A stretch of DNA of 64,000 nt from an uncultured Candidatus Saccharibacteria bacterium (GCA_964639185.1 CAZXCN010000001.1:38626-102625); one strand, 5' to 3'; numbered from the stretch's first letter, positions 29,791 to 48,065 are shown. A program made the numbers and translations. The notes: generated from the letters alone by a model not told the origin.

Positions 29791-32760
29791 ATGAGTATAG
29801 ATAGATACAAAAAAATAGTATCTTCAATTACACTAATGGTGTTTGTTTTTTCTACCATTATTGGGCCTACAGCCATAGTCTACGCGGAAGATATTGATAC
29901 TGGAAGTCAGGAGGCTACAACAAACAAAGCAGCTTATACTACGAACAACCCTGCATATACGTTCAATATACAAAATATATCCAATGTTCTACCTGCAGTT
30001 ATAGGGTGTACTGGCATTGTGAATAAAGTAAAGCAATACATGACAAGTGCTTTTGATGGCAATTCCGGAGGTATTTCAAATGATCTTACTTCATCTAAAA
30101 CAGGTACTGGTAATTATAAAGCTGGTTATGATGATGGTAGTGGTAACACAGATATCGATGGATTTAACGCTGGTATAGTAACAGAAAGTGTACCAACTGG
30201 TGATGCCTCTACTCAAAAAAATACACAAAAAAGTGCAGCAGAAGAAGCAAAAATAGCAGAAGAAGAAAAACAAAAGAGAATCAAAGATGAATGTCTAAAT
30301 GGGGTAGCATATGCATTAGCTAAAGCTCAATTGGCATCTATCACAAACAAAACAGTAAATTGGATAAATAGTGGATTCAATGGTGATCCATTATTTATTC
30401 GTGATCGTGAATCATATTTCAAAAGTCTAGGTGACCAAACATTACAAAGCCTACTTGGACCACTTGCAAATATAAATAATCAATCTCTGTATCCATTTGG
30501 ACAAGATTTTGCTCGTTCAGCAATACTATCAGCTAAAACAACATTTTTAGACAGATCAAAATCAACTCTTTCCCAATCATTAAAGCCTGGTGCAACTACA
30601 GAAGATTTTTCCAAAGATTTTAGCCAAGGTGGGTGGGATGGGTGGTTCTCCTTAACACAAAACCCTCAGAATAACCCTCTTGGATTTGGAATCATAGCAT
30701 CACAAGAACTTACTAATAAAATAAATGCAAAACAACAAGAAGCTGAAGCCGACTTGGCTCAAGGTGATGGATTCCTTTCACAAAAGAGGTGTGTGGAATA
30801 TTCAAAATCAGACGAAGGGCTAGATAATACAACAACATCTTCTTCAAAAAATTATAGTATTGTTTCAAATGATACAAATGCAAAACTAACAGGATTCTAC
30901 ATAACTACAAATTCTGTAAATATGGCTATCAAATACCAAGCAGGCGAGCTCGGCACATTGACTGCTTCTATAAAAAATTCTGCAGGTATATCCAAAGGGG
31001 CACAAATAGTTGGTAAAACAAAAAAAGGCAACAATGACCTAGGTACAACTTTCAATAGCTTGTCCGCTTCATCGAAATATGAAGTTAAATTTACATATCT
31101 AGCAGACACAGGTAGTACAGGGGAGAAAACTATTTTAACACTAAATATAACAACCCCTGACAAAGCTACTGGTAATCAGGATACAAATCGTCCAACAAAC
31201 ACATCAACAAATACAAATGCCACCCCTGAATGTATCCGCTGGGAAACAGTAACACCAGGAACAGTTATCGCTGACCAATTAAAGATAAATTTGGGTTCCT
31301 CTGTACGCCAACTTGAACTTGCTGATAGCTTGAATGAATCACTCAGTGCAATATTTGAAGCTCTAGTGAACCAGCTAGTAAATCAAGGTTTATCTAGCCT
31401 AAGTAACATAAAGAATACTTCTACAAATGGATTAGGTGGTGCTGGTAATAATAAAGTTTATGATTCTAGTGGTATTGATATCTCAGGAATATCTGCCGAA
31501 GGAATTCTAGGTAATAAATTATCAGTGAACAAAGGTTCAGGATGGTACAACACAAATGATACATTTGATATAACAAAAGATCTGGGTGATATCTATAAAT
31601 TAGAAAAGGGGAAGAAAGTGTTAGTAAAAAAAGGTATCATAACTATACAATCTGAATACATAACAGCAGTAAAAGCCTCCATGAAAGAAGCTCCACCTAT
31701 TATCCCTGCATTAGGTGAACTTGATTATTGTATTCCGGGGCCAAATCCAAACTGGAAATCAATTGCTGTTCCAAATGTAAATGAAACCATGGCAATTCTA
31801 CGAGACATAGACAAGAATGGTGTTACAACCATTGACACTTCTAACCCAAGAATGGAAGCTATTTACTCTTTTATGAGAGAATACAATCCTGGTTTTAAAT
31901 TAGGGGAAAATATTGGTAATATCTTTACAGCAAAGAGGAAGGCTGGTGAGGCACAACAGCTAAATAGTGCTATAGATGAAAGTTATTATGTTGGTAAATT
32001 ACTATTGAAGTTTAATATACAACTTATTGGTGACCAATATAAATCATACAGAGACAAGATGGACCAATTGTATGGACCAAATTCATCTATGCGTGACCCT
32101 ACTAGTGCGTGGTATTTACCAATGGCTGAAGCAGGTCTAGGATTAACAAAGAACTTGATATCTTACGACCAAAGCATGGGTGGACTCTTGGATGATTACA
32201 CTGACCAAATCAATCAAACAAATGCAAATATTTACAAACTCCAACAAATAAAGAAAAAAGTGGATGCAATAGTGGCAGCTGCTAAAAAAAGACAAGCTGC
32301 AGATATTCGAAGTGGTAAAATACAATTCTGCGCAGAAGAAGCTGGTGGCCCTATAGATACTGGTGTTACAAATGGGGGACTACTTAACAACACTAGCTCA
32401 GGAACAAAACTAAATCCAAATAACAATGGGGCAGTCAGTGGTATTGAACCTATACCAGATTTCAACTTAAGTATTACAGAATCTTTGGAGGATTGTACTG
32501 CAAAAATAATTGCAAAAAATACCTCAATAAATACAGTAGGACCTTATACTTGGAACAGAGTAACAACCGACAAAAACCAATCACAATACAATGCAACTTC
32601 TAAAGATTTTGAGTTTAATGTATCTACCTTTAGCGCATCTGGTCAAGCAAAAGTTACATTAACAATATCTGATACACTTGGTAAACCTATTAGCAAATCA
32701 AAAAACATAACAGTACCAAAAAGAACAAAAACATTATCCGGTCAGGCTTGCCCAATATAA
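29791..32760 (+). CDS. Large secreted protein (989 aa), S/T/N/G-rich, unknown family
   Basis: Signal peptide (KKIVSSITLMVFVFSTIIGPTAIVYA-ED), then low-complexity regions and beta-rich segments. Confidence 0.55.
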   Translation: MSIDRYKKIVSSITLMVFVFSTIIGPTAIVYAEDIDTGSQEATTNKAAYTTNNPAYTFNIQNISNVLPAVIGCTGIVNKVKQYMTSAFDGNSGGISNDLTSSKTGTGNYKAGYDDGSGNTDIDGFNAGIVTESVPTGDASTQKNTQKSAAEEAKIAEEEKQKRIKDECLNGVAYALAKAQLASITNKTVNWINSGFNGDPLFIRDRESYFKSLGDQTLQSLLGPLANINNQSLYPFGQDFARSAILSAKTTFLDRSKSTLSQSLKPGATTEDFSKDFSQGGWDGWFSLTQNPQNNPLGFGIIASQELTNKINAKQQEAEADLAQGDGFLSQKRCVEYSKSDEGLDNTTTSSSKNYSIVSNDTNAKLTGFYITTNSVNMAIKYQAGELGTLTASIKNSAGISKGAQIVGKTKKGNNDLGTTFNSLSASSKYEVKFTYLADTGSTGEKTILTLNITTPDKATGNQDTNRPTNTSTNTNATPECIRWETVTPGTVIADQLKINLGSSVRQLELADSLNESLSAIFEALVNQLVNQGLSSLSNIKNTSTNGLGGAGNNKVYDSSGIDISGISAEGILGNKLSVNKGSGWYNTNDTFDITKDLGDIYKLEKGKKVLVKKGIITIQSEYITAVKASMKEAPPIIPALGELDYCIPGPNPNWKSIAVPNVNETMAILRDIDKNGVTTIDTSNPRMEAIYSFMREYNPGFKLGENIGNIFTAKRKAGEAQQLNSAIDESYYVGKLLLKFNIQLIGDQYKSYRDKMDQLYGPNSSMRDPTSAWYLPMAEAGLGLTKNLISYDQSMGGLLDDYTDQINQTNANIYKLQQIKKKVDAIVAAAKKRQAADIRSGKIQFCAEEAGGPIDTGVTNGGLLNNTSSGTKLNPNNNGAVSGIEPIPDFNLSITESLEDCTAKIIAKNTSINTVGPYTWNRVTTDKNQSQYNATSKDFEFNVSTFSASGQAKVTLTISDTLGKPISKSKNITVPKRTKTLSGQACPI

Positions 32761-32763
32761 TAT

Positions 32764-34110
32764 ATGCAAAACAATCCACACAAAAGCAGAGCATTGATAA
32801 TCACCTTCGTAATAGTACTTGGGCTATTGATAGGTGGATATTTTGTATTTACTAGTGATACATTGTTTGGAGTAGAGAATAGTATTGGTCAAAAATTCTC
32901 ACCATTTCTAACAACACCAAAAGAGAAAAATCTAAATCAGATAGAAGACCCAAACACACTAGACCCAAATGGGGAAATACCCGATACGAATAATACTAGT
33001 ACTGATGATACTCTTGGAACAGACAGTGGATCAGGAGGAACAGGTAATGGATTCTCTGGTAATATTGGGAGCGGGGGAGCAACAGGCGGTATCTACACAT
33101 CACCAACAGGGGGCTCGGTTGCACTTCCAGGAAGCAAAGGGACAGTTATTACATCTAATTTTGTACCTCAATGTAGCGATAAAATAGACAATGATGCAGA
33201 TAAATTAATCGATGCATTAGATCCGGGTTGCCATAGCGACGGAGACGCAAGTAATACAAAGAGTTACAATAAAAACCAATATCTAGAATACAATTTTATA
33301 CCTGCTTGTAATGATGGAATAGACAATGATGCAGATAAATTAATCGATGCACTAGATCCAGTTTGTCATAGTGACAATAATGCAAAAAATCCTGCAACTT
33401 ATACTCCAAATTATACTTCAGAATATGTATCACAAACCAATACAAATAAAGCATCTAGCCAGTGTAATCCAGACGATCTTGCTCTTGTATTTACAGCCGA
33501 GGAACAAGCCGAGCTTGATGAATTGACTCGTCAATTCTATCGCATTGCTCCAACATTAAAGTCAACAAATGATATCCTGATAGAAGACAAGGCTAAACAA
33601 AGCTATATTGACCTAGTAAACAATGCCACAACACTTACAAATGAATGCTATGCGCAAACATATAATGATAAATATTTAGCAAATAGTACCAGCGTTGTAA
33701 CTGAAGGATTTGAAGCACTTAATACCAGATACTCATCGGACACAAAAGAAATCGATGGAACAGCATATGTTATAAAAACTTGGTATCCTTTCTTAAATAA
33801 TCAAAATGGAACACTCATCAGTGGTGGTAAGGAATTCAAAGAATCTTCAAGCTTAAGTATCCCACTATATCCTTATGCAAGCTTGAGTGGTCCAGATGCA
33901 AGTGGCCTAGGGGACAAAGGCAGGACCGAAAGACGAGGTAACCCTTATATAAGTCAAAAACCAGTATCTTCATATTGGCAAATATACGAAACAAAGCAAG
34001 CGACAAGAGACCCTAATGCTAATTATTATGGAAATGTTTACAAAAAAACCATAATTGGAAATAAATACTTCCCTTGGGCTGACTGGGAAAATATGATGGG
34101 TATTTGGTAA
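32764..34110 (+). CDS. Secreted protein with duplicated Cys-flanked D-x-D-x-D calcium-binding-like modules
   Basis: N-terminal TM/signal. Two copies of C.D.IDNDADKLIDALDP.CHSD (dockerin/EF-hand-like acidic loops) with a 33-nt perfect nucleotide repeat. Gly-rich linker. Confidence 0.5.
   Translation: MQNNPHKSRALIITFVIVLGLLIGGYFVFTSDTLFGVENSIGQKFSPFLTTPKEKNLNQIEDPNTLDPNGEIPDTNNTSTDDTLGTDSGSGGTGNGFSGNIGSGGATGGIYTSPTGGSVALPGSKGTVITSNFVPQCSDKIDNDADKLIDALDPGCHSDGDASNTKSYNKNQYLEYNFIPACNDGIDNDADKLIDALDPVCHSDNNAKNPATYTPNYTSEYVSQTNTNKASSQCNPDDLALVFTAEEQAELDELTRQFYRIAPTLKSTNDILIEDKAKQSYIDLVNNATTLTNECYAQTYNDKYLANSTSVVTEGFEALNTRYSSDTKEIDGTAYVIKTWYPFLNNQNGTLISGGKEFKESSSLSIPLYPYASLSGPDASGLGDKGRTERRGNPYISQKPVSSYWQIYETKQATRDPNANYYGNVYKKTIIGNKYFPWADWENMMGIW
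33184..33216. repeat. 33-nt exact direct repeat, copy 1 (ATAGACAATGATGCAGATAAATTAATCGATGCA)
   Basis: Identical 33-mer at 33319-33351, in frame, 135 nt (45 codons) apart. Confidence 0.8.
33319..33351. repeat. 33-nt exact direct repeat, copy 2
   Basis: Identical to 33184-33216. Confidence 0.8.
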
Positions 34111-34111
34111 T

Positions 34112-34142
34112 AAAACAGCGTGTTGAAAAACACGCTGTTTTA
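34112..34142 (+). terminator. Terminator hairpin (AAAACAGCGTGTT..AACACGCTGTTTT)
   Basis: 13-bp perfect inverted repeat with flanking A/T runs after the 32764 gene. Confidence 0.75.
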
Positions 34143-34182
34143 TATAGCAACAGTATTAATGAAATGCTATAATATTTAAAGC

Positions 34183-36615
34183 GTGAAGAAATTCTTGCCA
34201 TACATTTTAACACTATTAGTTGTCGTGAACTTATTCGCGCCATTTAGTGTTATATGGAAAGAAAACAATACTCTATCAGTAACAAAGAACGAGGCTAAAG
34301 CATCAGGTATTATAGTATTAGGAGGAGCTGGACAAATCACTTCAACAGACACCACTATATCAGTAACAGTAACTGCGGAATTTCCTACAGATTTTTCAAA
34401 AATAGATAGCGAAGGGGTTTCTGTTTATTTAAAAAAACCCACAGAAAGTGAGGAAGATGCAAAATTAGAAACCTTAACAGATAATTTCAAAGTTGTTGCT
34501 GATAAAAAAAATACCAAATCAGGTACTGTTGTTTTCCAAGACCTAACTCCCAATACACAATACCAAGTATGGTATGCTGTCTTACAAGACGAAGGTAGTG
34601 TTTGGGGCAAGCTAACAAGTGGTTGGAGGTATGGGTATGACAATACAATATCTGCTGAAGTCAGGAATCCATCTCAAAACTATTATGAAGTAACAACAAC
34701 TTCCGGAGGGCAAGCTAACGTTAACACCGAAACATCAGGTAATGCAGAGGGTATGATGCCCGCTTGTGGTGTATCAACTGGTGATGAATTATTAGGCTGT
34801 GTGGCAAAATTATTCTACTATGCAGTATTCACCACTACATCATTCTTATTTGGATTGGCAGGTAAATTCTTTGACTGGACATTTGCCTACTCTATAACAG
34901 ACACATCATACCGAACAGCTTTTGTGAACGAAGGTTGGGCAATAGTACGTGATATATGTAATATATTTTTTATATTTGTATTGTTATATGCTGCTTTCAA
35001 ATCAATATTTGGCTCACACGAAGCTAAATCAATTGTTATAAATGTAATCATTATTGGATTACTGATAAATTTTAGCCTCTTTGCTGCCCGTATCATGATA
35101 GATGCTTCAAATATTCTAGCTAGATTATTCTATACATCACAAGCAGTAGAAATATTGGCATCAGATAGTAGTGGAAATTATTCAAGGGGTGGGGTGGACA
35201 CACTACAAGATTCTGGATTGGGGGAACTTTCTCTTTCTAGTGCTTTGGTAAATAAAATTAACCCACAAAAAATTATTCTAGGGGCAAGAAATATAAATAT
35301 CAAAGATGATGCTTTGGGTGCAAATGGTAATGCCCAAAACAACAAGAATCAACCAATCGGAATTGGGGCATTTTTCCTTATCACCCTTCTAGCTGTAATT
35401 GTAAATGTGGTTGGACTCTTTGTATTCTTATCTGTTGGCCTTATATTTGTGGCCCGAGTTATTGGATTATGGATTGCTATGGTTTTGGCACCATTTGCAT
35501 TCTTTAGTTACACAGTGCCCAAACTTTCAAAAACAAAAATGCTAGGGTGGAGTAATTGGTGGAGCGATACACTAGGGCTATGTTTTGTAGCACCAATATT
35601 TATGTTTTTCCTTTATTTAATATTACTATTCTTGGAAAATGGATTCTCATCTTTGATAGACCCAAATGTTACTGGAGCAAATTTTGTCTTGGTCACAATT
35701 ATCCCATTTGTATTTATAATGATATTACTAATGACTGCTAAAAAGTTGGCAAAAGAGTATTCAGGAACAATAGGCCAAACAATTACCGGTGCAGTTACTG
35801 CAGTAGGGGCGGCGGCGCTTGGCGGGGCAGCGTTAGGCACAGCATGGGCTGGTAGAGGAGTAGGAAAAGGTTTTAATATGGCATCACAACAAGGAACAAG
35901 ACTCAAAGAAATAAAAGAACAAAAAGCTGCAGGAACATATGTAAAACAAAAGGGTGACTGGAAAGCACAAACATTTGGACGTATTGGTAATCCACTAAAC
36001 AGAACTCAAGAAAAAATAAATAAAGTTGACCACGCTAGACATGAGCTTGATACTCTTACTGAAAAAAAGTTTGGTAAGGGTCAAAGGTTTGAAAGACTTT
36101 CTGGTTATCAAAAAAGTTTGATTCAACAAGAACATGCTAAAAAGGAACGTGCTGGTGTCGAAGAAAAATACAGAAGAGAAAATGGTCTTAGTAAAAGTCA
36201 GGCTCTTACCGCAGCACAAAGAAGTGACGTTGATGCTAAACTATCACATGAATTCGATCATTTCGTTGACGAAGCTAAGAAGAAAATTTCAGGGCTTAGT
36301 CGAGCATTTTCACAAGTCAATACTGGAAGTTGGGATGTTAGAAACATGTCAGATGTAAAACAAGACAGAAGAGAAGGTTTGATAACCAAATTCTCATCAA
36401 AATTAATGTCTGGTACTGCTGGGGGAATGCGTATGGGATTAAATAAAAGTGCTGATATAAATTACGGAAAAGGTTTTGCTGATATTTTTAAGGATCTTGG
36501 CCATACAATAACAGAAGCCTTGAAGAGTGCTAAATTTGAAATAAAAGCCGACGCTTCTCACGGAGCTGGAGCTGCTGAAAGTGGACATGATGCTGGACAT
36601 GGAGGAGGGCATTAG
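34183..36615 (+). CDS. Polytopic membrane protein, VirB6/TrbL-like candidate, with N-terminal FN3-like ectodomain and long charged cytoplasmic tail ending in His/Gly-rich segment
   Basis: Signal/TM, then ectodomain with DLTPNTQYQVWYAV (FN3-like). At least six hydrophobic helices. About 270-aa K/E/R-rich tail ending HGAGAAESGHDAGHGGGH. Assignment to VirB6 is by architecture and context only. Confidence 0.45.
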   Translation: MKKFLPYILTLLVVVNLFAPFSVIWKENNTLSVTKNEAKASGIIVLGGAGQITSTDTTISVTVTAEFPTDFSKIDSEGVSVYLKKPTESEEDAKLETLTDNFKVVADKKNTKSGTVVFQDLTPNTQYQVWYAVLQDEGSVWGKLTSGWRYGYDNTISAEVRNPSQNYYEVTTTSGGQANVNTETSGNAEGMMPACGVSTGDELLGCVAKLFYYAVFTTTSFLFGLAGKFFDWTFAYSITDTSYRTAFVNEGWAIVRDICNIFFIFVLLYAAFKSIFGSHEAKSIVINVIIIGLLINFSLFAARIMIDASNILARLFYTSQAVEILASDSSGNYSRGGVDTLQDSGLGELSLSSALVNKINPQKIILGARNINIKDDALGANGNAQNNKNQPIGIGAFFLITLLAVIVNVVGLFVFLSVGLIFVARVIGLWIAMVLAPFAFFSYTVPKLSKTKMLGWSNWWSDTLGLCFVAPIFMFFLYLILLFLENGFSSLIDPNVTGANFVLVTIIPFVFIMILLMTAKKLAKEYSGTIGQTITGAVTAVGAAALGGAALGTAWAGRGVGKGFNMASQQGTRLKEIKEQKAAGTYVKQKGDWKAQTFGRIGNPLNRTQEKINKVDHARHELDTLTEKKFGKGQRFERLSGYQKSLIQQEHAKKERAGVEEKYRRENGLSKSQALTAAQRSDVDAKLSHEFDHFVDEAKKKISGLSRAFSQVNTGSWDVRNMSDVKQDRREGLITKFSSKLMSGTAGGMRMGLNKSADINYGKGFADIFKDLGHTITEALKSAKFEIKADASHGAGAAESGHDAGHGGGH

Positions 36616-36666
36616 GAAAGATAAGCAGAAAGTAGTAAGGAAATACTAATTTAAAAAATAATTGAA

Positions 36667-37578
36667 ATGGATCAACAACAACTACAACAAAAGATCGCTG
36701 AATACGCAAGCAAGCTTCCACCAAATGCCCAAGAGTATTTTATCAAAATGGATTGGATGAATGTACTACAAACTATTGCGACTAAGTACCAGCTAAACGA
36801 ACAACAAGTAGCAAGCCTTGGTACTGAAACAACACTATTATTACTAGGTATAGTGCACCCAGATGAATATACAGGCTTCTTAAAGAAGGAGATAAATATG
36901 GAAGAAGAGGCAAGTGTACAAATGTTTAATGATATTAATACTCAGATAATTGGCAACTTGCGTGGTGACCTAGAGAGTGCCCATATGGCAAACTCGATAG
37001 AACTTGCAGAGAATGAATATGGTGATAATCTGGAAACAGAAATGAATATTCCTGAAGCCCCGAAGCCACCATACGTATCCACACCACCAGCACCAAATTT
37101 ATCTATTCCAAATGCTCCAACTCCATCATACAAGCCTGCTCCGGAAGCAATAGCTACTGTGGCTATACCAGTTGAATCTGAAGCAGACATATCAATAGAA
37201 ACAGCAAATAGCCCTACCAATATAAACCCAGCAAAAGATAGCTCTAATATTTTTTCAAATGCTGGTATAGAGATGGTGTCTATAAATAAATCCGACACTA
37301 CCATCGGAAGCCAGCCAAAGGTAATGCCATTAGTTACAAGGAGTTTCAATACAGCTGACAGGTTCATGGAATCTGGAATTGATATAATTCCCGAGCGTAA
37401 AGCTGACGATGTATTCAAGCCTAATTCTGCTACTGGGGCAGAAACTCTATCTGGTATAAATAATCCAACAATGGGTGTTGTTAATATGCTAGGCGATAAA
37501 CTAAATAAAGCCACAGTAACACCAACAACACAAAGCAACCAAAGCTTGAACAAAGACCCTTACAAAGAACAAATATAA
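36667..37578 (+). CDS. Hypothetical protein with P/S/T/N-rich low-complexity C-terminal half
   Basis: ORF. The minus-strand ORF 36942-37553 overlapping it is judged spurious. Confidence 0.4.
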   Translation: MDQQQLQQKIAEYASKLPPNAQEYFIKMDWMNVLQTIATKYQLNEQQVASLGTETTLLLLGIVHPDEYTGFLKKEINMEEEASVQMFNDINTQIIGNLRGDLESAHMANSIELAENEYGDNLETEMNIPEAPKPPYVSTPPAPNLSIPNAPTPSYKPAPEAIATVAIPVESEADISIETANSPTNINPAKDSSNIFSNAGIEMVSINKSDTTIGSQPKVMPLVTRSFNTADRFMESGIDIIPERKADDVFKPNSATGAETLSGINNPTMGVVNMLGDKLNKATVTPTTQSNQSLNKDPYKEQI

Positions 37579-37579
37579 T

Positions 37580-37981
37580 ATGCAATTCAAAGTACCACAA
37601 TTTATCGATGTAGAGGACAAATTATTTGGCCCATTTACTTTTAAACAATTTGCTTATATGGCAGGTGGTGGGGGATTGGTATATATATTGTATAAAGTAT
37701 TACCTATATGGATCGCTATTCCACTAATAATACCTGTGGTAATACTTACAGCATTACTTACTTTTTATAAAATCAATGGCAAATCTTTTCTATACTACCT
37801 ACAAGCAAGCATTACATATGCAACAAAAAGCAAGCTCTATGTATGGAAGCAACGCTTACAGAGGCCAGATACAAAGAAGGATATACCTAATCTACCTACA
37901 CAAACATCAGTAGTTCCAACACTTTCAGGAAGCAAACTCAAGGATTTATCTTGGAGCCTTGATGTACTAGACAAGAAATAG
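37580..37981 (+). CDS. PrgI-like / VirB3-like small membrane protein of type IV secretion systems
   Basis: 133 aa. N-terminal VPQFIDVEDKLFGPFTFKQF followed by two hydrophobic helices resembles PrgI-family (VirB3-analogue) proteins. Sits immediately upstream of VirB4. Confidence 0.5.
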   Translation: MQFKVPQFIDVEDKLFGPFTFKQFAYMAGGGGLVYILYKVLPIWIAIPLIIPVVILTALLTFYKINGKSFLYYLQASITYATKSKLYVWKQRLQRPDTKKDIPNLPTQTSVVPTLSGSKLKDLSWSLDVLDKK

Positions 37982-38024
37982 TTTCCCCTTACTACTTATT
38001 GAATCTACATGTTACAATAACATT

Positions 38025-38672
38025 ATGTCGCTTGATGCAAAAAGATCACAAGAATTTGTTCCAATAAAAGAAGTTCGCGATGGTATCATTATATTAAAAG
38101 ATGGTGGTCTTCGTGCGGTTCTTGTTGCTTCATCTATCAATTTATCACTCAAATCCTCAGACGAACAAAGGGCTGTTATCTCTAATTTTCAAAACTTTCT
38201 AAATGGATTGGATTTTTCTATACAAATAGTAGTTCAATCACGCAGGCTTGATATTCGACCATATTTACTAACACTCGAAGAGCGTATGAAGTTACAAGTA
38301 GAGCCACTTATAAAAATCCAAACCAAAGAATATATGGAATTTATTCAGTCATTTACAAATGAAGTAAACATAATGACCAAAAGTTTCTTTGTTGTTGTAC
38401 CATACAGTGGTGGAACATTTAAATCCGACGAGAGCATAGTGGAAAAAGTCTTAGACATGAAAAAAGCAAAGAAAACTAATTCAAAGAAGGAGGCCGACCT
38501 AGCCAGTTTTGAGGAAAAGAGGTCACAATTGGACCAGCGAGTATCCATGATAAGTCAGGGGTTAGGTGGGTTTGGAGTACGTAGTTCACAATTAGGAACC
38601 GAAGAAGTTATCGAGATGTTTTACAAGACATTTAATCCTGGTGATATAAGTCAGGGAATAAAATTAGAATAA
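38025..38672 (+). CDS. VirB4/TrbE/CagE-family ATPase, N-terminal segment (terminated by an in-frame TAA)
   Basis: FVPIKEVRDGIIILKDGGLRAVLVASSINLSLKSSDEQRAVISNFQNFLN matches the conserved N-terminal region of VirB4 proteins. Same reading frame as the downstream ATPase ORF, separated only by TAA-TAT-ATG. Confidence 0.65.
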   Translation: MSLDAKRSQEFVPIKEVRDGIIILKDGGLRAVLVASSINLSLKSSDEQRAVISNFQNFLNGLDFSIQIVVQSRRLDIRPYLLTLEERMKLQVEPLIKIQTKEYMEFIQSFTNEVNIMTKSFFVVVPYSGGTFKSDESIVEKVLDMKKAKKTNSKKEADLASFEEKRSQLDQRVSMISQGLGGFGVRSSQLGTEEVIEMFYKTFNPGDISQGIKLE

Positions 38673-38675
38673 TAT

Positions 38676-40505
38676 ATGAGTATTTTTTCATCAATTTTTG
38701 GTTCAAATAAAGCAACACCACAAGGCAAAATGGTGCTACCTGTGTTACCAAATGAAATATACCAAGCAGCCACATTGGAGCTTCAGGATATAATAGCCCC
38801 TTCAGCATTACAAATCAGCCCAAAATCACTAAATCTCGGAGACAAGATATCCCGCACATTTTTTGTTATATCATACCCACGCTACCTTACCGACAATTGG
38901 TTTTCACCAATTATCAATTTAGATAAAATATTTGATGTTTCTATATTTATTCACCCTATCAATACGGGGGAAATACTACGTTCTTTCCAAAAGAAGGTGG
39001 CTGAAGTGCAAAGTCAGATATCGATACGTGAATCCAAGGGGCTCGTGCGTGACCCAATGCTAGATACTGCATATGGCGACCTCGAGGAACTTCGCAATAA
39101 CTTGATGCAAGCTCAGGAAAAGATGTTCGATGTAGGTTTATATATCACTATATATGCCGACAACGAAAACGAATTATATAAATCCGAAAATGAAATCAAG
39201 TCATTATTGGAATCTAAATTAATATATTTAAAACCTGCATTATTCCAACAAGAAGAAGCTTTCAAAAGCTCTATCCCTACTGGTACTGACCTTTTGGAAA
39301 TAGGGCAGAAGTTGAATACCGAACCACTTTCTAGTGTATTTCCATTTGTATCCTTTGACCTTACTTCAGACAAAGGCATACTATATGGGGTAAATAGGCA
39401 TAATTCCAGCCTTATCATATTTGACCGTTTCTCACTGCCAAACTATAACTCTATTACATTTGCCACATCTGGTGCTGGTAAATCATACGCTACCAAACTA
39501 GAGATCATTCGCACTCTTATGTTTGATACCGAAGTAATTGTCATAGATCCTGAACGTGAATACGAATTCCTGTCTGAAGCAATGGGGGGTAGGTATTTCA
39601 ATATTGCACTTTCATCTGAGCACCACATCAATCCATTTGACCTGCCTATCCCAAGCGAAGACGAAACAGGTGGTGATGTATTGCGATCAAACACCATCAA
39701 CCTTGTTGGATTATTTCGTATCATGCTCGGTGGCCTAACCCCAGAAGAGGATTCCATAATCGATCGTGCTATTACAGAAACATATGCGCTTAAAGACATT
39801 ACCGCGGAAAGTGATTTTCGAAATATTGAACCTCCTTTACTTTCCGATTTTGAAATGGTTCTAGCTGGCATGGAAGGTAGTGATTCAATCATACAACGCC
39901 TTACAAAATACACTCGTGGAAGTTGGGCTTCGTTCCTAAATCAACCTTCAAATGTGGATATAAATAGAAAATTTGTTGTCTTTTCTGTACGTGATATGGA
40001 AGATGAGCTCAAACCAGTAGCTATGTATATAGTTACACATTATATATGGAACGCTATTCGTAAAAATATAAAGAAGCGACTATTGGTGGTAGATGAAGCT
40101 TGGTGGATGATGAAATCCGAGGACACAGCTTCGTTCCTATATTCTATTGCAAAACGTGGGCGTAAATATTACTTAGGGCTTGCTACTATAACCCAAGATG
40201 TGGGAGACTTTATGAAGAGCCCTTATGGTATACCTATTGTTACCAACTCTTCACTTCAACTTCTACTAAAGCAATCACCATCAACAGTAGACCTGCTTCA
40301 AAAAACTTTCAACCTTACCGACGAGGAAAAATACCTTCTTTTAGAAGCAAATGTAGGGGAGGGTATATTCTTTGCAGGACTCAAACACGTAGCTGTTAAA
40401 ACTATTGCTTCTTATACCGAGGACCAGATCATAACATCGGACCCATCACAAATATTGGCTATAAAAAAAGCAAAAGACGAATTAATGAATAATAATACGC
40501 AATAG
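38676..40505 (+). CDS. VirB4/TrbE/CagE-family type IV secretion ATPase (main body)
   Basis: Walker A ATSGAGKS, Walker B LLVVDEAWWM, and the conserved LATITQDV region. 609 aa. Confidence 0.85.
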   Translation: MSIFSSIFGSNKATPQGKMVLPVLPNEIYQAATLELQDIIAPSALQISPKSLNLGDKISRTFFVISYPRYLTDNWFSPIINLDKIFDVSIFIHPINTGEILRSFQKKVAEVQSQISIRESKGLVRDPMLDTAYGDLEELRNNLMQAQEKMFDVGLYITIYADNENELYKSENEIKSLLESKLIYLKPALFQQEEAFKSSIPTGTDLLEIGQKLNTEPLSSVFPFVSFDLTSDKGILYGVNRHNSSLIIFDRFSLPNYNSITFATSGAGKSYATKLEIIRTLMFDTEVIVIDPEREYEFLSEAMGGRYFNIALSSEHHINPFDLPIPSEDETGGDVLRSNTINLVGLFRIMLGGLTPEEDSIIDRAITETYALKDITAESDFRNIEPPLLSDFEMVLAGMEGSDSIIQRLTKYTRGSWASFLNQPSNVDINRKFVVFSVRDMEDELKPVAMYIVTHYIWNAIRKNIKKRLLVVDEAWWMMKSEDTASFLYSIAKRGRKYYLGLATITQDVGDFMKSPYGIPIVTNSSLQLLLKQSPSTVDLLQKTFNLTDEEKYLLLEANVGEGIFFAGLKHVAVKTIASYTEDQIITSDPSQILAIKKAKDELMNNNTQ

Positions 40506-40589
40506 ATATAGGGTGATACTAACAAATCGATTTGTGCTTTTAATTCTTTTCTACTTTCTACTTTTTACTTATTTTAGTATAATATAATA

Positions 40590-41579
40590 GTGAAAAAATG
40601 GTTTATACAAATAACCCTATTAATACTTTTAGTTATTAGTGTATCACCTCTGTATATCAATGCTGAGAGTCTTCAGGTTACATCTGCTGATATAAATATT
40701 GAAACAATACCAGAAAACCCAGCTCCGTATTCTGATGTAACTATCAATATTACGAGCTACGCTACTGACTTGAATAAAGCACTAATAACATGGAAAAGTG
40801 GCAATGATACACTACTTTCTGGAATAGGGCGCACAAAATATGTATTTAAAACTGGGGCTCCTAATATAAATACCGCATTTCAAATTTCTATTACCCCTGC
40901 TGGAACATTTGGGTCTGTTGATAAAAGCTTTATCATACAACCATCTGAAGTAGAGATGCTATGGCAAGCTATCGATTCATATACACCACCTTTCTACAAA
41001 GGTAGAAGTTTCCCATCAACCGAAGGGTATATTCGAGTAGTAGCTATGCCAAACACTGCTGGTGTAGCAAATATAAACAACAAGAACATGGCTTACTATT
41101 GGAAGATAAATTACAATAGTGACCAAGATGCATCGGGGTATGGCAAGGATTCATTTACTTATAAAAATAGCTACCTTAATGATATTGACCATGTTGGGGT
41201 TGCTGTATCCACCACAAATGGATCATACACTGGTACTGGTACAGTAGATATACCGATGTCTAAACCTGAAATAATTTTCTACAAAAAGTCACCTACTGAA
41301 GGGATCAATTATAACGAAGCTATATCTAATACAGTAGATATGACCGAAGATGAGATGACCCTAGTAGCAGAACCTTATTTTCTAAATAATATAATTAACA
41401 CAAATGATTTAGTATATAAATGGCAAATAAACAACAAAGATATCAATACCCCTAGAAACCCTTATGAATTAACAATCCGCCCAGAATCACGTGGGGGATA
41501 TGCTAATATAAATATATCAATAAACAGTATTAGTAAACTTTTCCAGTCGGTTAGTAAATCTATTAAAATAAATTTGTAA
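40590..41579 (+). CDS. Secreted protein with three internal beta-rich modules, unknown family
   Basis: Signal peptide (ITLLILLVISVSPLYINA-ES). Recurrent W[KQ]...N pattern. No family assignment. Confidence 0.45.
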   Translation: MKKWFIQITLLILLVISVSPLYINAESLQVTSADINIETIPENPAPYSDVTINITSYATDLNKALITWKSGNDTLLSGIGRTKYVFKTGAPNINTAFQISITPAGTFGSVDKSFIIQPSEVEMLWQAIDSYTPPFYKGRSFPSTEGYIRVVAMPNTAGVANINNKNMAYYWKINYNSDQDASGYGKDSFTYKNSYLNDIDHVGVAVSTTNGSYTGTGTVDIPMSKPEIIFYKKSPTEGINYNEAISNTVDMTEDEMTLVAEPYFLNNIINTNDLVYKWQINNKDINTPRNPYELTIRPESRGGYANINISINSISKLFQSVSKSIKINL

Positions 41580-41580
41580 T

Positions 41581-43035
41581 ATGAAAAAGGTAACCATATT
41601 AGTATTATCAATATTAACAATGCTTGGTGGAGTATTTATTTCAATGTACCCACAAAAGGCTAGTGCAGCAGCATGTTCTGTATCATCAGCAACTTTTAGC
41701 CCTAGTGGTGATCAAGCAGACAAATGGTATGCCCCTGGTAAAAACAAAGTGTCCATAGAAATAATCACTGAAAATTGCATTGGGCAAACACTTACCGTAA
41801 ATGTAACAGAAGCGGACAGTTGCCCTCTTGTTGATTGCGATGATTATTTACCAGATTCAGGACTTGAAAATTTAAAAATAAAAATTGAACAAATTATTAC
41901 AAATATAGATATAACTGCAGGTGAGGAATCTTGTGAAGCAGGACTGGGGTTTGATTGTGATTTATATCTTCGAGTTAAAAGTGGTGGTTATTCATTGTAT
42001 TCATCTTGGGAAAAGAGTCAGGGTAATTTAAGATATGAATGTAGTGGTGTGTGTTTAGACAATGCAAAATTAGGAAATATTGCATTTAGTGAGGGAACTG
42101 GTCCTGTTAATGAAAATGGTGATCCTGTATCTGTTACACCTACAGGCAACCGAGTATTTGATGAGGATTATAAATTACTAGCACCATTACCTGGGATATC
42201 TAAAATAGACAGTACAACAACTACATTGGGAGATTATCTGAATATAATTTTCAAATTAGCTATTGGTATTTGTGGGGCACTGGCTGTAATTATGATTGTA
42301 ATATACGGAGTACAGTACATGGGGGATGGGTCAGTATTTGGTCATACTGAGGCAAAGAGCAAGATATCAGCTGCTATAATGGGTCTATTACTAGCACTCG
42401 GTGCATATGCAATATTGAATACAATTAATCCCGATCTGGTAGGGGAAAGTGGTATAAACATAAAGCAAGTACAGATAAGTATCTCTCCAGACGATACATC
42501 AACAGGATCATCTACAAATCTTTGTATTTCATCAACAAATCCGCCAAATCCAGATGATGCGAAAGGGACAACAGTAACTTTAAACAAAACCATGCTGGAT
42601 AAATACATACCTGAAATAAACAAAATTACTTCATTAAAAACTGGTCAAAAATTACTAATGACAGCACAAACATTTACTGAAGGTTTTAACGAAACTCCAT
42701 CACCAGGTACTAAATCTTACAGAACAAATAATCCTGGTAATATAGGGAACACAGATGATGGTAAAACTAAATCTTTTCCAACACTTAAAGAAGGCATAAT
42801 AGCACAATCAACCGAAGTGATAAGTGGGAAAGGAAGTTACCAGATCAATGGATCATCCACCTGTGCTCTTGGCAAAGAATTATATGATGGGTCTTTGTAT
42901 CAGTATTTAAGAATATATTCTACTGGAGCAAGACAAAATAATAATTATGTTAATTCTATTATTGGTTATTTTAAAGCAAACGGTAAAACAATTACAGCAA
43001 GAACAAAGATGTCTGAAATATATAACATGAATTAA
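41581..43035 (+). CDS. Secreted Cys-rich protein with an internal VirB2/TrbC-pilin-like two-helix hydrophobic hairpin and a C-terminal globular domain
   Basis: Signal peptide. Cys-rich N-domain. Segment FKLAIGICGALAVIMIVIYGVQYMGDGSVFGHTEAKSKISAAIMGLLLALGAYAILNTI resembles TrbC/VirB2 pilin helices. C-terminal ~200 aa of unknown function. Confidence 0.4.
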   Translation: MKKVTILVLSILTMLGGVFISMYPQKASAAACSVSSATFSPSGDQADKWYAPGKNKVSIEIITENCIGQTLTVNVTEADSCPLVDCDDYLPDSGLENLKIKIEQIITNIDITAGEESCEAGLGFDCDLYLRVKSGGYSLYSSWEKSQGNLRYECSGVCLDNAKLGNIAFSEGTGPVNENGDPVSVTPTGNRVFDEDYKLLAPLPGISKIDSTTTTLGDYLNIIFKLAIGICGALAVIMIVIYGVQYMGDGSVFGHTEAKSKISAAIMGLLLALGAYAILNTINPDLVGESGINIKQVQISISPDDTSTGSSTNLCISSTNPPNPDDAKGTTVTLNKTMLDKYIPEINKITSLKTGQKLLMTAQTFTEGFNETPSPGTKSYRTNNPGNIGNTDDGKTKSFPTLKEGIIAQSTEVISGKGSYQINGSSTCALGKELYDGSLYQYLRIYSTGARQNNNYVNSIIGYFKANGKTITARTKMSEIYNMN

Positions 43036-43040
43036 TTAAC

Positions 43041-44363
43041 ATGAGAAAGACAATAATCATTATTATACTTATACTAATCACCGCTGGTGGGACATTTTGG
43101 TATATACAAAATAAACAAAATACTACTGCAACCAGTAACACTAATACAGACACTGGATTCTTTAAATCATTCTTTTCATTTACACAAAAAAAATCAGACA
43201 CAACAACTGGTACTGGCTCGGACACAACAGACACAACAACTGGTACAGACACCAATGGCGATGGGGTAGTAGATACTTCAGTACAAAATACTCCTAAATT
43301 AAAACAGGTCACAAATTTTGCGATATCAGGTTTTACAACATTTATCGACAAAAGAAAGCTTCCAGAAAGTGCAGTACCTTTTTCTGAAACACCAATATTA
43401 ACAAACACAAAGGAAAAGCAAGTAACCCCGATAATACCTAAAATAGAGGAGGAGTCAGTGTCAGCATTACGCTATGTTGCACGATCAAATGGACATATTT
43501 ATAGTCAGTATTTAGACACAGAAGCAAGTGCTAAAACATCTAACTCAACAATTCCAAGTATTTACGAAACATATTTAGGCAACAATGGTAGTGCTGTAAT
43601 ATACAGATACCTAAGCAATAACAACAAAACAATACAAACATTTCTAACACATACAAATCAAACAAAAGGGGATTTTCTTCAAGAAGATATAACAAGTGTA
43701 TCAATATCACCAGATAGTGTTGGTTTATTCTACCTTGCACCACTCGGTAGTGATATAGCTGGTTATTACATGAACCTTCAGGATAATAATAAAGTACAAA
43801 TATTCACATCTGCATTTACTGAGTGGTTACCACAATGGGCAGGGACTTCTACTATATTCCTGACAACAAAGCCATCATGGGACACCAGAGGTTCATTGTA
43901 CGCAACAAATATAGGTAAAAACAATTTCACAAAAGTATTTGGAGGGATAAAGGGTCTAACCACACTTGCTTCTAATAATGCTACAAATATAATATACAGC
44001 GCAACAACAAATATTGGCCCAGAATTAGGTGTATACAATATAGAAAAGAAAGAATTCACAAAGCTTCCAGTACGAACAATGGCAGATAAATGCGTATGGA
44101 GCAGGGATGGGGTGAGGGTTTATTGTGCAAAGCCAAACAACATTGAAGGCAATAAGTATCCAGATAACTGGTATAAAGGCATAACTTCATTCAATGACAG
44201 TATTGTAGTTATAGATATTACAAACAAATCTTACCTAACTATCATAAATACTGAAGATGTTTCAGCAATAGATGCAATAAATCTAACACTATCAAAAGAT
44301 GAAAAGGTTTTATTATTTATGAATAAAAAAGATTCAACATTGTGGAGATTGGATTTAGAATAA
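43041..44363 (+). CDS. Membrane-anchored protein with T-rich linker and beta-propeller-like (TolB/PD40-like) C-terminal region, unknown function
   Basis: N-terminal TM (IIIIILILITAGGTFWYI), T/G/D-rich linker, repeated [YF]..[ST].DG-type blades. Assignment is weak. Confidence 0.4.
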   Translation: MRKTIIIIILILITAGGTFWYIQNKQNTTATSNTNTDTGFFKSFFSFTQKKSDTTTGTGSDTTDTTTGTDTNGDGVVDTSVQNTPKLKQVTNFAISGFTTFIDKRKLPESAVPFSETPILTNTKEKQVTPIIPKIEEESVSALRYVARSNGHIYSQYLDTEASAKTSNSTIPSIYETYLGNNGSAVIYRYLSNNNKTIQTFLTHTNQTKGDFLQEDITSVSISPDSVGLFYLAPLGSDIAGYYMNLQDNNKVQIFTSAFTEWLPQWAGTSTIFLTTKPSWDTRGSLYATNIGKNNFTKVFGGIKGLTTLASNNATNIIYSATTNIGPELGVYNIEKKEFTKLPVRTMADKCVWSRDGVRVYCAKPNNIEGNKYPDNWYKGITSFNDSIVVIDITNKSYLTIINTEDVSAIDAINLTLSKDEKVLLFMNKKDSTLWRLDLE

Positions 44364-44374
44364 CCTCTCCCTAG

Positions 44375-44438
44375 CCCTCTCCTTTGTAATGAGAGGGGAT
44401 AACCAAAAGAAAAAGAGGAGATTATATCTCCTCTTTTT
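44375..44438. terminator. Two adjacent terminator hairpins between convergent genes (CCCTCTCC..GGAGAGGG and AAAAAGAGGAGAT..ATCTCCTCTTTTT)
   Basis: Perfect inverted repeats with A/T runs, one serving each strand. Confidence 0.7.
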
Positions 44439-44889
44439 CTTTGTATTTAATTACTACTCTACGTCCTGGACCAACTCCAGATGATTCAGTAGTGATGTCT
44501 GGGATATTCTCTAGAAACATGTGCACAATACGACGTTCATATGCAGGCATAGGGTCAAGCTCGACACTATTCTTGAAATATCGTGCGCGCTCAGCCAACA
44601 TGTGTGCAGTAGTTTTCAAGCTATCAAACCTCTTCTTATTATAACCATTGATATCGATCATAAGCATGCCGGCCTCGGCCTCACTTATATCCTTCTCGAT
44701 CATTTTACGAACAATATGATTTAAAGATTTAAGTGTATCACCCTCACGGCCTATCATGAATCGTGAATCGGGTGTTGATACAGAGCACCACAACATTGAG
44801 CCTTCTTCGGTAAATTCACATGCATCCAATTTGCACGCTGTGTGTTTAAATATATCTTCTATTATTTTTTTTATATTATCTTTGTCCAT
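44422..44889 (-). CDS. Jag/KhpB-like R3H-domain RNA-binding protein
   Basis: KH-like plus R3H motif (ERRIVHMFLEN...SSGVGPGRRVVI). Downstream of yidC as in the canonical oriC-region operon. Confidence 0.8.
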   Translation of the reverse strand: MDKDNIKKIIEDIFKHTACKLDACEFTEEGSMLWCSVSTPDSRFMIGREGDTLKSLNHIVRKMIEKDISEAEAGMLMIDINGYNKKRFDSLKTTAHMLAERARYFKNSVELDPMPAYERRIVHMFLENIPDITTESSGVGPGRRVVIKYKEKEEI

Positions 44890-44902
44890 ATTTATAATAT
44901 AT

Positions 44903-45664
44903 TTATTTTACTTCAATCGCTTTTACTTCTATTATGCCATCTTCTTTCTTTAAATTATTCTTTACGTACCATTCCTGAATAATTGTAAACACGTTACTTG
45001 TAACCCAATAAAGTGCTACTGCTGCAGATATTTTGTAAGAAATAAATACTATGAATATTGGTAATATAAAGCGAACATTTACAGACATACTGTCAGACAT
45101 TTGCTCTTGGAAAGTTTTTGGTTTATCAGAATCAGCTGGGTCTTTCTTTGGCTTTTTTGCAAACATCATCTGCCCTTGGATAAATTGTGATATACCAGCA
45201 AGCAAAGCAAGAACTATTGATTTACCATGAACATCAATAACACCTAGGAACATTGTGTGTAAATTCACTGGCATTGTTACAAATGAATATAATGGGTCAG
45301 TCCCTTGTGCCAAACCCTTATAAAATGCGTAATACAAAGCAAATATAACAGGCAACTGTACTAACAGAACCAAACACCCAGAAAAAGGATTTACTTTGTA
45401 TTGTTTATATAACTCAAAAGTCTTCTTTGATTGCTCTTCTTTATTTGGATAATCCTCCTTTATCTTCTTTAGAAGGGGTTCTATTTGCTTCATTTTGAAT
45501 TGACTGCGAATAGACTTCTTTGAAAGAGGGAATAGTATCAGTTTTACTAAAATTGTAAGTATTATGATAGCAAAACCAACATCCCCAAAGGTGACATGGT
45601 TTATAATAAAGATAAGAGCGTTATAAATAGGTTGATAAAAAAGATTAGTCCAAATAGTTTGCAT
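44903..45664 (-). CDS. yidC: Membrane protein insertase YidC/Oxa1 family (short form)
   Basis: Five-TM core with conserved hydrophilic groove residues. Position in the rpmH-rnpA-yidD-yidC-jag cluster. Confidence 0.9.
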   Translation of the reverse strand: MQTIWTNLFYQPIYNALIFIINHVTFGDVGFAIIILTILVKLILFPLSKKSIRSQFKMKQIEPLLKKIKEDYPNKEEQSKKTFELYKQYKVNPFSGCLVLLVQLPVIFALYYAFYKGLAQGTDPLYSFVTMPVNLHTMFLGVIDVHGKSIVLALLAGISQFIQGQMMFAKKPKKDPADSDKPKTFQEQMSDSMSVNVRFILPIFIVFISYKISAAVALYWVTSNVFTIIQEWYVKNNLKKEDGIIEVKAIEVK

Positions 45665-45707
45665 TAAACTATTGTAACTTAATAAGCTCTAAAATCAAAA
45701 TATTTGT

Positions 45708-45914
45708 TTATTTTAAAGGGTCTAAGCGGTTTTTCTGCCATGGATGGCAACGTAATATCCTATACACACCTTTATACACACCTTTTAGAGATCCATACTT
45801 TTCAATAGCTTGTTTAGTATACTCAGAGCAAGTTGGGACAAAAACACAAGCATAATGCGCCCTTGTTGGGGTCTTTTGATATGTATTTATAAGCCAAATT
45901 AGTAGTTTTTTCAA
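45708..45914 (-). CDS. yidD: Membrane protein insertion efficiency factor YidD
   Basis: 68 aa with the C.F.PTCSEY...RC.PW motif. Confidence 0.85.
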   Translation of the reverse strand: MKKLLIWLINTYQKTPTRAHYACVFVPTCSEYTKQAIEKYGSLKGVYKGVYRILRCHPWQKNRLDPLK

Positions 45915-45915
45915 T

Positions 45916-46245
45916 TTAAGCCTTTATTTTAAGGAATAATTCAGATAAATCGCCTTTAATTTGCTCAAAAGAAGCCTCTTTGGCTTGTTTCTTGTAAAAA
46001 ACTATGTAAACAAAGCCTTTTTTGAGATTCACACAAGAAATAGCCCTATAACCCTGTCTTCGAAGGGAATTACGCTTTGAGGCAAGCTTGGCTACTGCTT
46101 TTGGTGCAACAAAGGCTAATTTATATACATCTTTATCCGAAAAAGCCTTATATTTCAACATAAAAAAAGGGCTATGCAAAACATTGCCTTCTTTTATGAC
46201 AGAATCGAATAACCCTTTTGTTACTCGTCTATTCTTTGAGATCAT
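45916..46245 (-). CDS. rnpA: Ribonuclease P protein component
   Basis: 109 aa, basic. Immediately downstream of rpmH (1-nt spacing), conserved synteny. Confidence 0.8.
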   Translation of the reverse strand: MISKNRRVTKGLFDSVIKEGNVLHSPFFMLKYKAFSDKDVYKLAFVAPKAVAKLASKRNSLRRQGYRAISCVNLKKGFVYIVFYKKQAKEASFEQIKGDLSELFLKIKA

Positions 46246-46247
46246 AC

Positions 46248-46388
46248 TTATTTTGATACTGAGAGTTTTGCGCGACCCTTTTGGCGTCGGCGAGCAAGCA
46301 CCTTCTTACCACCAACTGTTTTTGTACGAGTTAGGAAGCCGTGAGTTTTTGCTCTTTTTCTTTTATTAGGTTGGTATGTTTGAGACAT
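46248..46388 (-). CDS. rpmH: 50S ribosomal protein L34
   Basis: [46 protein letters not shown], 46 aa, a near-textbook L34 sequence. The longer ORF-track version has a spurious upstream extension. Confidence 0.9.
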
Positions 46389-46497
46389 ATAGGAAATATA
46401 TACTATAATGTACATTATTGCAAATCCACATGTTATCAACATGTTAATTAAGAGTTGCAAGTATTACTTATTAACAAAGACGGGTATAATACAAATT

Positions 46498-47838
46498 ATG
46501 AATAACACAAAGGAATTATGGAATACATGCCTAATAGATATCGAATCAAATATCTCACGTGCCAACTTTACAACATGGTTCAAGAACACATCTATCATAA
46601 AAGAGGATAGTGGTACGTTACACATAGGTGTTCCAAATGAATTCGTAAAGGATTGGTTATACAACAAATTCCACAAACTGATCCTAAAAACTCTAATGTC
46701 ACACAAGGATGATATTCGTAGCATTGAATACGTGATAGTTAAACATGACTCTAGTAAAATAGCACCACCTCCAGTCTCTACCCAAAACAAAGAATTACCT
46801 TTAGGTGATTTATATATAAACAAAGAAGATAATCTAAATCCTAAATACACATTCAACTCATTTATTGTTGGACCTTTCAACGAGCTTGCTTATGCCGTAT
46901 CACAAGCAATAATAAACAATCCTGGCAATAGTTATAATCCTTTCTTTATTTATGGTGGTACTGGGTTGGGTAAAACTCATATGATCCAATCAATAGGGAA
47001 TACCATAAAAGCAAAATTTCCAAACAAAAAGATATTCTATGTAAGCTTGGAAAGGTTTTCAATCGATTATGTAAATTCATTACAAAACAAAACACCAAAT
47101 GCTTTCAAGGAGAAGTATAGAAAATACGATGTGATAATAATGGATGATATTCAATTCATATCTGGTAAAGAAAAAACTCAGGAAGAATTATTCCACTTAT
47201 TCAACACACTTCACGAGAGTAACCGACAGATAATATTCTCATCTGATAAACACCCGAACTTTATCCAAGGTCTAGAGGAGAGGTTACAATCAAGATTTGC
47301 TTCAGGTATGACTGTTCAAATAACTGAACCTGACTATGAATCTCGTATAGCTATAATACAAGCTAAATTACAGAACAATAATTGTATCGTGGATGAAGAT
47401 GTGGTTTCATATCTTGCAGCTTCTCTTGAGGGTAATATACGCGAATTAGAGGGTAGTTTGAACGCTATTATATGCCAATCTCAATTAAAAAATAAGAGTA
47501 TTAGTCTAATAGAAGCAAAACAATTAATAAAAAACAACATTAAACCAAAAAAGAGTGTTGCAATAAAAGATGTTGTAAAAACAATAGCTGATTATTATGG
47601 AATAGAAGAAGAAACAATATACGATAAAACAAGAAGGAAGGAGATAGTTCGAGCTCGCCAAGTAACTATGTATATCTTGAGAGAAGATTTCAATATATCT
47701 TACCCACTTATTGGTCAGAAAATGGGTGGCAAAGATCACACAACAGTAATACACTCTCATTTAAAAATAAAGAAGGATATAACAACCGACCCAGCATTAG
47801 TACAAGAATTAGAAAAGATAAGAATATTGTTTAAATAG
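46498..47838 (+). CDS. dnaA: Chromosomal replication initiator protein DnaA
   Basis: Start taken at MNNTKELW. AAA+ Walker A GGTGLGKTHM, Walker B IMDDIQF, and C-terminal DNA-binding helix-turn-helix. Confidence 0.95.
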   Translation: MNNTKELWNTCLIDIESNISRANFTTWFKNTSIIKEDSGTLHIGVPNEFVKDWLYNKFHKLILKTLMSHKDDIRSIEYVIVKHDSSKIAPPPVSTQNKELPLGDLYINKEDNLNPKYTFNSFIVGPFNELAYAVSQAIINNPGNSYNPFFIYGGTGLGKTHMIQSIGNTIKAKFPNKKIFYVSLERFSIDYVNSLQNKTPNAFKEKYRKYDVIIMDDIQFISGKEKTQEELFHLFNTLHESNRQIIFSSDKHPNFIQGLEERLQSRFASGMTVQITEPDYESRIAIIQAKLQNNNCIVDEDVVSYLAASLEGNIRELEGSLNAIICQSQLKNKSISLIEAKQLIKNNIKPKKSVAIKDVVKTIADYYGIEEETIYDKTRRKEIVRARQVTMYILREDFNISYPLIGQKMGGKDHTTVIHSHLKIKKDITTDPALVQELEKIRILFK

Positions 47839-48065
47839 TTGTGGATAAGTTACTTATAAGTTAATAAAAAAATGTTTATAAGTGTTAATAAAAATAGAAT
47901 AAGTACACGGTTTAATAAAAAATGTATTTAAATAAAAATTAATTAACATTTCGATAATTTAAAAAACAATAATATACATTTATAAAATAAGGTTTAAAAA
48001 GTAATCCACATTATACAGACAGTAATAGTAATAATAATGTATTAATAGATAATATACACAATTAT
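47839..48065. promoter_or_regulatory. Candidate chromosomal origin (oriC): AT-rich dnaA-dnaN intergenic region with DnaA boxes
   Basis: Perfect DnaA box in reverse orientation TGTGGATAA at 47840-47848. Near-consensus TAATCCACA at 48002-48010. Additional TTATAAGT/ATATACACA-like boxes and a >85% AT tract. Canonical location next to dnaA/dnaN, diverging from rpmH. Confidence 0.6.

Follow-up and report, generated by a model that had tools for sequence, protein, structure and literature searches.

When a VirB4 ATPase appears to be interrupted by a single in-frame stop codon, the question arises whether one gene has been broken or recoded, or whether two genes adjoin. The question is raised by a locus in the window (the whole stretch of DNA analyzed, 64,000 nucleotides of assembly GCA_964639185.1), in which a 215-aa ORF ends with TAA at 38670–38672 and, after the triplet TAT at 38673–38675, an ATG at 38676 opens a 609-aa ORF in the same frame, so that one stop codon lies between the two. 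The sequence-only reading of this DNA had described exactly this layout, and the sequence is as it said. It considered four explanations, namely a natural split into two polypeptides with termination-reinitiation coupling, a recent nonsense mutation, a sequencing error, and translational readthrough. The features of the locus are as follows.

29791–44363, plus strand: surrounding block of co-directional genes, which includes a T4SS pilin-domain gene at 41581–43035; the left limit is approximate, as the ORFs at 29791–34110 match no family.
37580–37981, plus strand: PrgI/TcpE-family gene for a VirB3-like small membrane protein (Pfam PrgI, E = 4.9e-10; TcpE, E = 1.1e-05).
38025–38672, plus strand: trsD-like gene, 215 aa, PF26593 "TraC-like", a stand-alone homologue of the first ~200 VirB4 residues.
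38670–38678, plus strand: junction TAA-TAT-ATG, comprising the trsD-like stop, a 3-nt spacer, and the virB4 start.
38676–40505, plus strand: virB4 (trsE-like) ATPase gene, 609 aa, without the first N-terminal module; Walker A at 39468–39488 and Walker B at 40080–40103.

The VirB3-like, TrsD-like, and VirB4 genes of the window are adjacent and lie on one strand. The PrgI/TcpE-family gene is the immediate upstream neighbour of the trsD-like/virB4 pair, a place that trsC takes in pSK41 and PrgI genes take in related loci. Intergenic gaps within the T4SS block are short (0–84 nt), and the pilin-domain gene scores just below the family cut-off (Pfam T4SS_pilin, 23.5 bits against 26.6). The block adjoins an origin-proximal cluster at 44422–49163, with matches to R3H, 60KD_IMP, Ribonuclease_P, DnaA, and DnaN, in which jag(R3H)-yidC-rnpA lie on the minus strand and dnaA-dnaN on the plus strand, placing the system near the replication origin. 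This synteny is common to two related loci (L001 and L087). The T4SS is chromosomal, and its host is a Paceibacteria/Nomurabacteria-like Patescibacterium.

Analysis of the 609-aa ORF confirmed that it encodes a Walker A/B ATPase of the VirB4 family. The Walker A motif is SGAGKSY (residues 265–271) and the Walker B motif is LLVVDEAW (residues 469–476). Pfam matches comprise P-loop_TraG (PF19044; E = 2.1e-24, 86.4 bits against a cut-off of 25.8), AAA_10, and DUF87, together with a weak match to the end of CagE_TrbE_VirB. The ORF scores 372.8 bits against the NCBIfam profile conju_CD1110 (NF045971), above the curated cut-off of 325, over profile positions 183–732 of 752. Its ATPase domain resembles those of one-piece VirB4 proteins, matching PDB entry 4ag5, a VirB4 C-terminal domain (E = 4.6e-39), and TrwK (E = 1e-05). 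The first N-terminal module is absent from this ORF, as the match begins at position 183 of 752 in conju_CD1110 and at position 289 of 894 in VirB4_plasma. In all loci surveyed, the ATPase gene opens with its own ATG, and the peptide M(G/S)IFSS directly after it is kept.

The 215-aa ORF was held in the sequence-only reading to carry the VirB4 N-terminal region, an assignment borne out by NCBIfam profile matches and by alignment to a natural fusion protein described below. It matches VirB4_plasma at positions 103–233 of 894 (E = 3.6e-10) and conju_CD1110 at positions 2–116 of 752. The NCBIfam profile TrsD/TraD (NF041427) is matched over most of its length (positions 18–180 of 201, E = 7.8e-8), with a score of 32.4 bits, far below the curated cut-off of 200 bits. 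By these profile scores, the protein is a distant TrsD homologue that lies outside the narrow curated NF041427 subfamily. A profile-profile alignment by hhalign with a diverse set of 72 sequences aligned the protein end to end with pSK41 TrsD (E = 1.5e-4, 175 columns); a narrow 33-sequence profile gave no match to TrsD (probability 2%), and the 72-sequence profile gave no significant match to TrwK. Our Pfam scan returned no family for the ORF, and the Pfam copy used probably lacked the PF26593 model; precomputed annotations assign PF26593 to an identical protein and to all listed homologues. Single-sequence and profile searches of the PDB with the ORF yielded nothing meaningful. The AlphaFold model of the protein is of moderate quality (pLDDT of 69), and the top 13 PDB matches obtained with it in Foldseek are all TrwK/VirB4 of R388, each of them weak (TM of about 0.4, E of about 6e-3, probability of 0.97).

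The product of the 215-aa ORF has at least 7998 homologues in the database. Each of the best 120 stands alone, with a length of 212–224 aa and an identity of 69–100%, and the sources named among them are Patescibacteria, Paceibacteria, or Nomurabacteria. Comparison with L003, a 93%-identical relative, gave a dN/dS of 0.023 for the 215-aa ORF, indicating strong purifying selection, and 0.013 for the 609-aa ORF. The 215-aa ORF is a real gene, as shown by this low ratio and by its stand-alone homologues of similar length (about 215 aa), which number in the thousands. The TrsD-like proteins of other Patescibacteria lineages (P0292, P0321, and others) reach 300–450 aa and carry a long C-terminal tail rich in Pro, Ala, and Gln, which is probably disordered.

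The two ORFs cover the VirB4 profiles in a complementary manner. In conju_CD1110, the 215-aa ORF occupies positions 2–116 and the 609-aa ORF positions 183–732, while in VirB4_plasma they occupy positions 103–233 and 289–881 of 894, with no overlap in either case. An exhaustive profile search with the 215-aa protein gave 2982 clusters at 50% identity; among the best 150 of these, 148 are unfused and two are fused. Both fusions, P0348 (797 aa) and P0370 (898 aa), are genuine, being encoded by DNA that translates free of stops. On P0348, the 215-aa ORF aligns with residues 1–214 and residues 36–601 of the 609-aa ORF align with residues 230–796, again without overlap. Judged by the agreement among conju_CD1110, VirB4_plasma, and P0348, the two products together amount to a full-length VirB4, as the sequence-only reading had proposed. 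In P0370, residues ~215–330 form a low-complexity linker to the ATPase part, which resembles the tails of the longer TrsD-like proteins.

The same evidence bears on the possibility that the 215-aa protein acts independently as an accessory factor, a paralogue of the VirB4 N-terminus that does not complete the ATPase. Such a role would fit the TrsD homologues of Gracilibacteria, which mostly do not adjoin virB4 (PMC12102498), and the many homologues of 300–450 aa in total with long, probably disordered C-terminal tails. Against it, the 215-aa protein supplies exactly the profile region that is missing from the 609-aa ATPase, the fused forms join both parts in canonical order, and the three genes are adjacent and in the order PrgI, TrsD, VirB4 in every locus examined, including those of pSK41 and pJFP838A and the related loci. 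We regard an accessory role as unlikely.

A search with the joined products returned, among the best 120 matches, stand-alone ATPases of 590–627 aa and one apparent fusion, P0124 (846 aa; L001 2060–4600, ENA contig ERZ1758444 NODE_230). We rejected P0124 as a one-piece VirB4: the underlying DNA carries TGA in frame at this very junction (...PIKMN*), and the protein shows W there. P0124 is a gene-calling artefact, in which genetic code 4 (TGA = Trp) merged the trsD-like and virB4 genes, and TGA is a real stop there. Reassignment of TGA in this clade was likewise rejected, as TGA ends 19 of 329 long ORFs in the related loci. The 51 plausible genes of the window end in TAA (44) or TAG (7) and none in TGA. 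Apparently TGA is a rare stop in the clade yet is still used, for example in ATGA overlaps.

The junction itself was compared among relatives. Eighty loci were fetched from species-representative genomes, and the junction was scored wherever both genes were present; the 81 scored loci comprise 78 of these 80, L001, L002, and the window. L002, a separate Logan assembly of run SRR12712865, reproduces the locus of the window identically. The proteins share 61–93% identity, and the place of the split is homologous in every one of the 81 loci. The stop codon of the trsD-like gene is TAA in 70 loci, TAG in 7, and TGA in 4.

These counts bear directly on two of the proposed explanations. That a sequencing or assembly error made the stop codon is a logical possibility for a metagenome-assembled sequence and has nothing else in its favour. 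It is opposed by L002, in which the same junction is present and the products are 100% identical to those of the window, by the TAA that L003 has at the same codon, and by the universality of the split in the clade; together with the dN/dS of 0.023, the 81 of 81 loci refute such an error. The reading of virB4 as a pseudogene produced by a recent nonsense mutation in this genome draws only on a superficial look, that of one in-frame stop within a seemingly full-length VirB4. It is refuted by the stop at the homologous position throughout the surveyed loci and by a dN/dS around 0.02 in both parts, and the stand-alone homologues numbering in the thousands also speak against it. Both explanations are scarcely credible.

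The two genes keep no fixed frame with respect to each other. Counted from the trsD-like stop, virB4 begins in frame +1 in 41 loci, in frame 0 in 22, and in frame +2 in 18. The spacer is 1 nt long in 23 loci, 4 nt in 11, 3 nt in 7, and 6 nt in 6; the commonest junction is TAA-N-ATG (23 of 81 loci, frame +1). The genes overlap as ATGA in 3 loci and are separated by 38–288 nt in 14.

Programmed readthrough of the TAA, or another form of recoding, would give an 825-aa VirB4 beside or instead of the two pieces. It could be argued from the window, where both ORFs share a frame and one stop separates them, from the 15 of 81 loci that have this layout, and from the genuine fusions, which show that the one-piece form is functional in some lineages. 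The survey points in the opposite direction: frame 0 is not enriched, its 22 loci falling below the roughly 27 (one-third) expected by chance (binomial p = 0.90 for enrichment), the commonest layout is in frame +1, some genes overlap as ATGA, and the 38–288-nt inserts of some loci hold further stops. In addition, TAA is the organism's main stop (44 of 51 genes), and the ATG that opens the large ORF is conserved, as is the peptide that follows it. Only 15 of 81 loci have the single in-frame stop layout, and therefore readthrough is not under selection. The free variation of the frame among species leaves readthrough unsupported, and we consider it very improbable. The shared frame of the two ORFs in the window is a coincidence, one chance variant of a variable junction.

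In nine species, a mobile-looking small element lies between the trsD-like stop and the virB4 ATG. Its terminal inverted repeats read CCCGTTAGA(A/G)...TCTAACGGG, and its copies are as follows.

Short form, 107–120 nt: L017 4662–4776, L034, L037 1870–1984, L041 2452–2566, L050, L054, and L058 4650–4769.
Long form, 276 nt: L038 4656–4931, L070 4667–4942, and L048 2188–2463.
Further copies: L023 1291–1408 and L038 7812–7918.

A few further copies precede the start codons of other genes. Among the nine copies whose flanks were inspected, all lie directly 5' of an ATG, and in seven a second copy of the first 4–5 bases, counted from the ATG, stands on the upstream side of the element. The long form encodes an 82-aa GIY-YIG protein (Pfam E = 5.7e-17). 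It resembles a GIY-YIG element whose targets are start-codon regions and which has MITE-like derivatives. A search of the window for a copy gave only chance-level matches, and none is present there.

Inspection of 29 starts in the window (for example those at 29791, 34183, 40590, and 20300) revealed no Shine-Dalgarno-like motif upstream. In several genes, TATAAT-like hexamers lie only 5–12 nt before the start codon. This spacing suggests that mRNAs of the host may be leaderless or have very short leaders.

Taken together, it is very probable that trsD-like and virB4 are two separate conserved T4SS genes, that the TAA and ATG are their normal stop and start, and that the shared frame is coincidental. 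This conclusion is drawn because the split is kept in all 81 loci and the frame is not, because both genes are under purifying selection, because the halves are complementary, and because pSK41 offers a prototype. The description of a VirB4 gene interrupted by a stop was thus mistaken, the TAA being the normal boundary of two conserved genes. Of the explanations first considered, the natural split into two polypeptides holds, given the split in all 81 loci and the dN/dS values; the termination-reinitiation coupling attached to it is probable.

In this reading, the first gene (trsD-like) encodes the N-terminal ~200 residues of a canonical VirB4 and the second (virB4, trsE-like) the rest of the N-domain and the ATPase domain. 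We propose that both polypeptides would be made from one operon transcript. Translational coupling is probable because the stop and the start are adjacent in most species, and tight coupling would not be obligatory because 14 of 81 loci have 38–288 nt between the genes. Once made, the two polypeptides may come together non-covalently as a VirB4-like ATPase at the membrane, with the PrgI/VirB3-like protein. Judging from the known architecture of one-piece VirB4 proteins, the 215-aa protein would be the membrane-proximal module beside PrgI/VirB3. The physical association of the two proteins is likewise presumed, because of the homology with one-piece VirB4, the complementarity, and the rare fusions. 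We give very little weight to a further idea, that low-level TAA readthrough in genomes with the in-frame single-stop layout could yield some fused, functional VirB4, and that the split may let the cell tune or exchange modules. If this were true, the fused VirB4 made by readthrough might have a role such as nucleating assembly, and the ratio or exchange of the membrane-proximal VirB4 module would be set independently of the ATPase.

Comparison with known systems revealed the same arrangement on plasmids of Bacillota. The pSK41/pGO1 system of Staphylococcus aureus (MPF-FATA class, pGO1 subclass) has, like the window, a VirB3-like gene, a TrsD of ~220 aa, and a short VirB4 of 600–670 aa, in the order trsC (VirB3-like), trsD (227 aa), and trsE (672 aa). 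As with the window ATPase, pSK41 TrsE matches conju_CD1110 only from position 183 onward (region 183–730). The sequences of TrsD and the 215-aa ORF are very divergent, with about 17% identity. The window system is chromosomal, lies beside oriC, and has a pilin-domain gene, whereas the pSK41 system is carried on a conjugative plasmid. Stand-alone homologues of the 215-aa protein occur in 101 Bacillota plasmids; on one of them, pJFP838A, PrgI, a hypothetical protein (a stand-alone homologue), and a DUF87 ATPase follow in the order seen in the window.

One-piece VirB4 proteins include the CD1110 family of Clostridioides CTn elements, the VirB4 of Mycoplasma ICE, TrwK of R388, and TraC of F; the window ORFs together cover the whole profile. 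They are single polypeptides of 750–900 aa, whereas in the window a gene of its own encodes the first ~200 residues. VirB3-VirB4 fusions also exist, for example in Campylobacter (PMC12102498), and, like the split in the window, they indicate evolutionary plasticity of the domain boundaries near the VirB4 N-terminus. Such a fusion is the opposite event to fission of the VirB4 N-terminus, and the window has none.

The closest parallels are the T4SS loci of Patescibacteria. Quinonero-Coronel et al. (Microb Genom 2025, PMC12102498) describe TrsD as remotely homologous to the N-terminus of VirB4 and as the most abundant T4SS component recovered in Patescibacteria, with 2,272 homologues, of which 1,664 adjoin virB4. 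According to the account of Wang et al. 2023 given in PMC12102498, a TrsD homologue is essential in Southlakia epibionticum. The T4SS loci of Patescibacteria are often near oriC and, like the window, combine a TrsD-like gene beside virB4 with PrgI/VirB3, VirB6-like, and VirB2-like pilin genes (PMC12102498). We found no difference of substance between the window and these published loci, of which it is one more example. The split trsD-virB4 arrangement is thus already published for Patescibacteria and staphylococcal plasmids, and the window is an ordinary instance of it. What is added here to PMC12102498 is the statistics of the junction, the explicit complementarity of the halves, and the rare true fusions.

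For annotation, the two ORFs should be kept separate, and their junction should not be flagged as a pseudogene, a frameshift, or a recoding site. For the biology of the group, the locus adds another case of the essential, origin-proximal T4SS of Patescibacteria. The N-terminal module that the short VirB4 lacks is exactly what the TrsD-like protein supplies, which supports TrsD as a detached VirB4 domain. This reading offers a concrete hypothesis for TrsD, whose function is not assigned in the literature.
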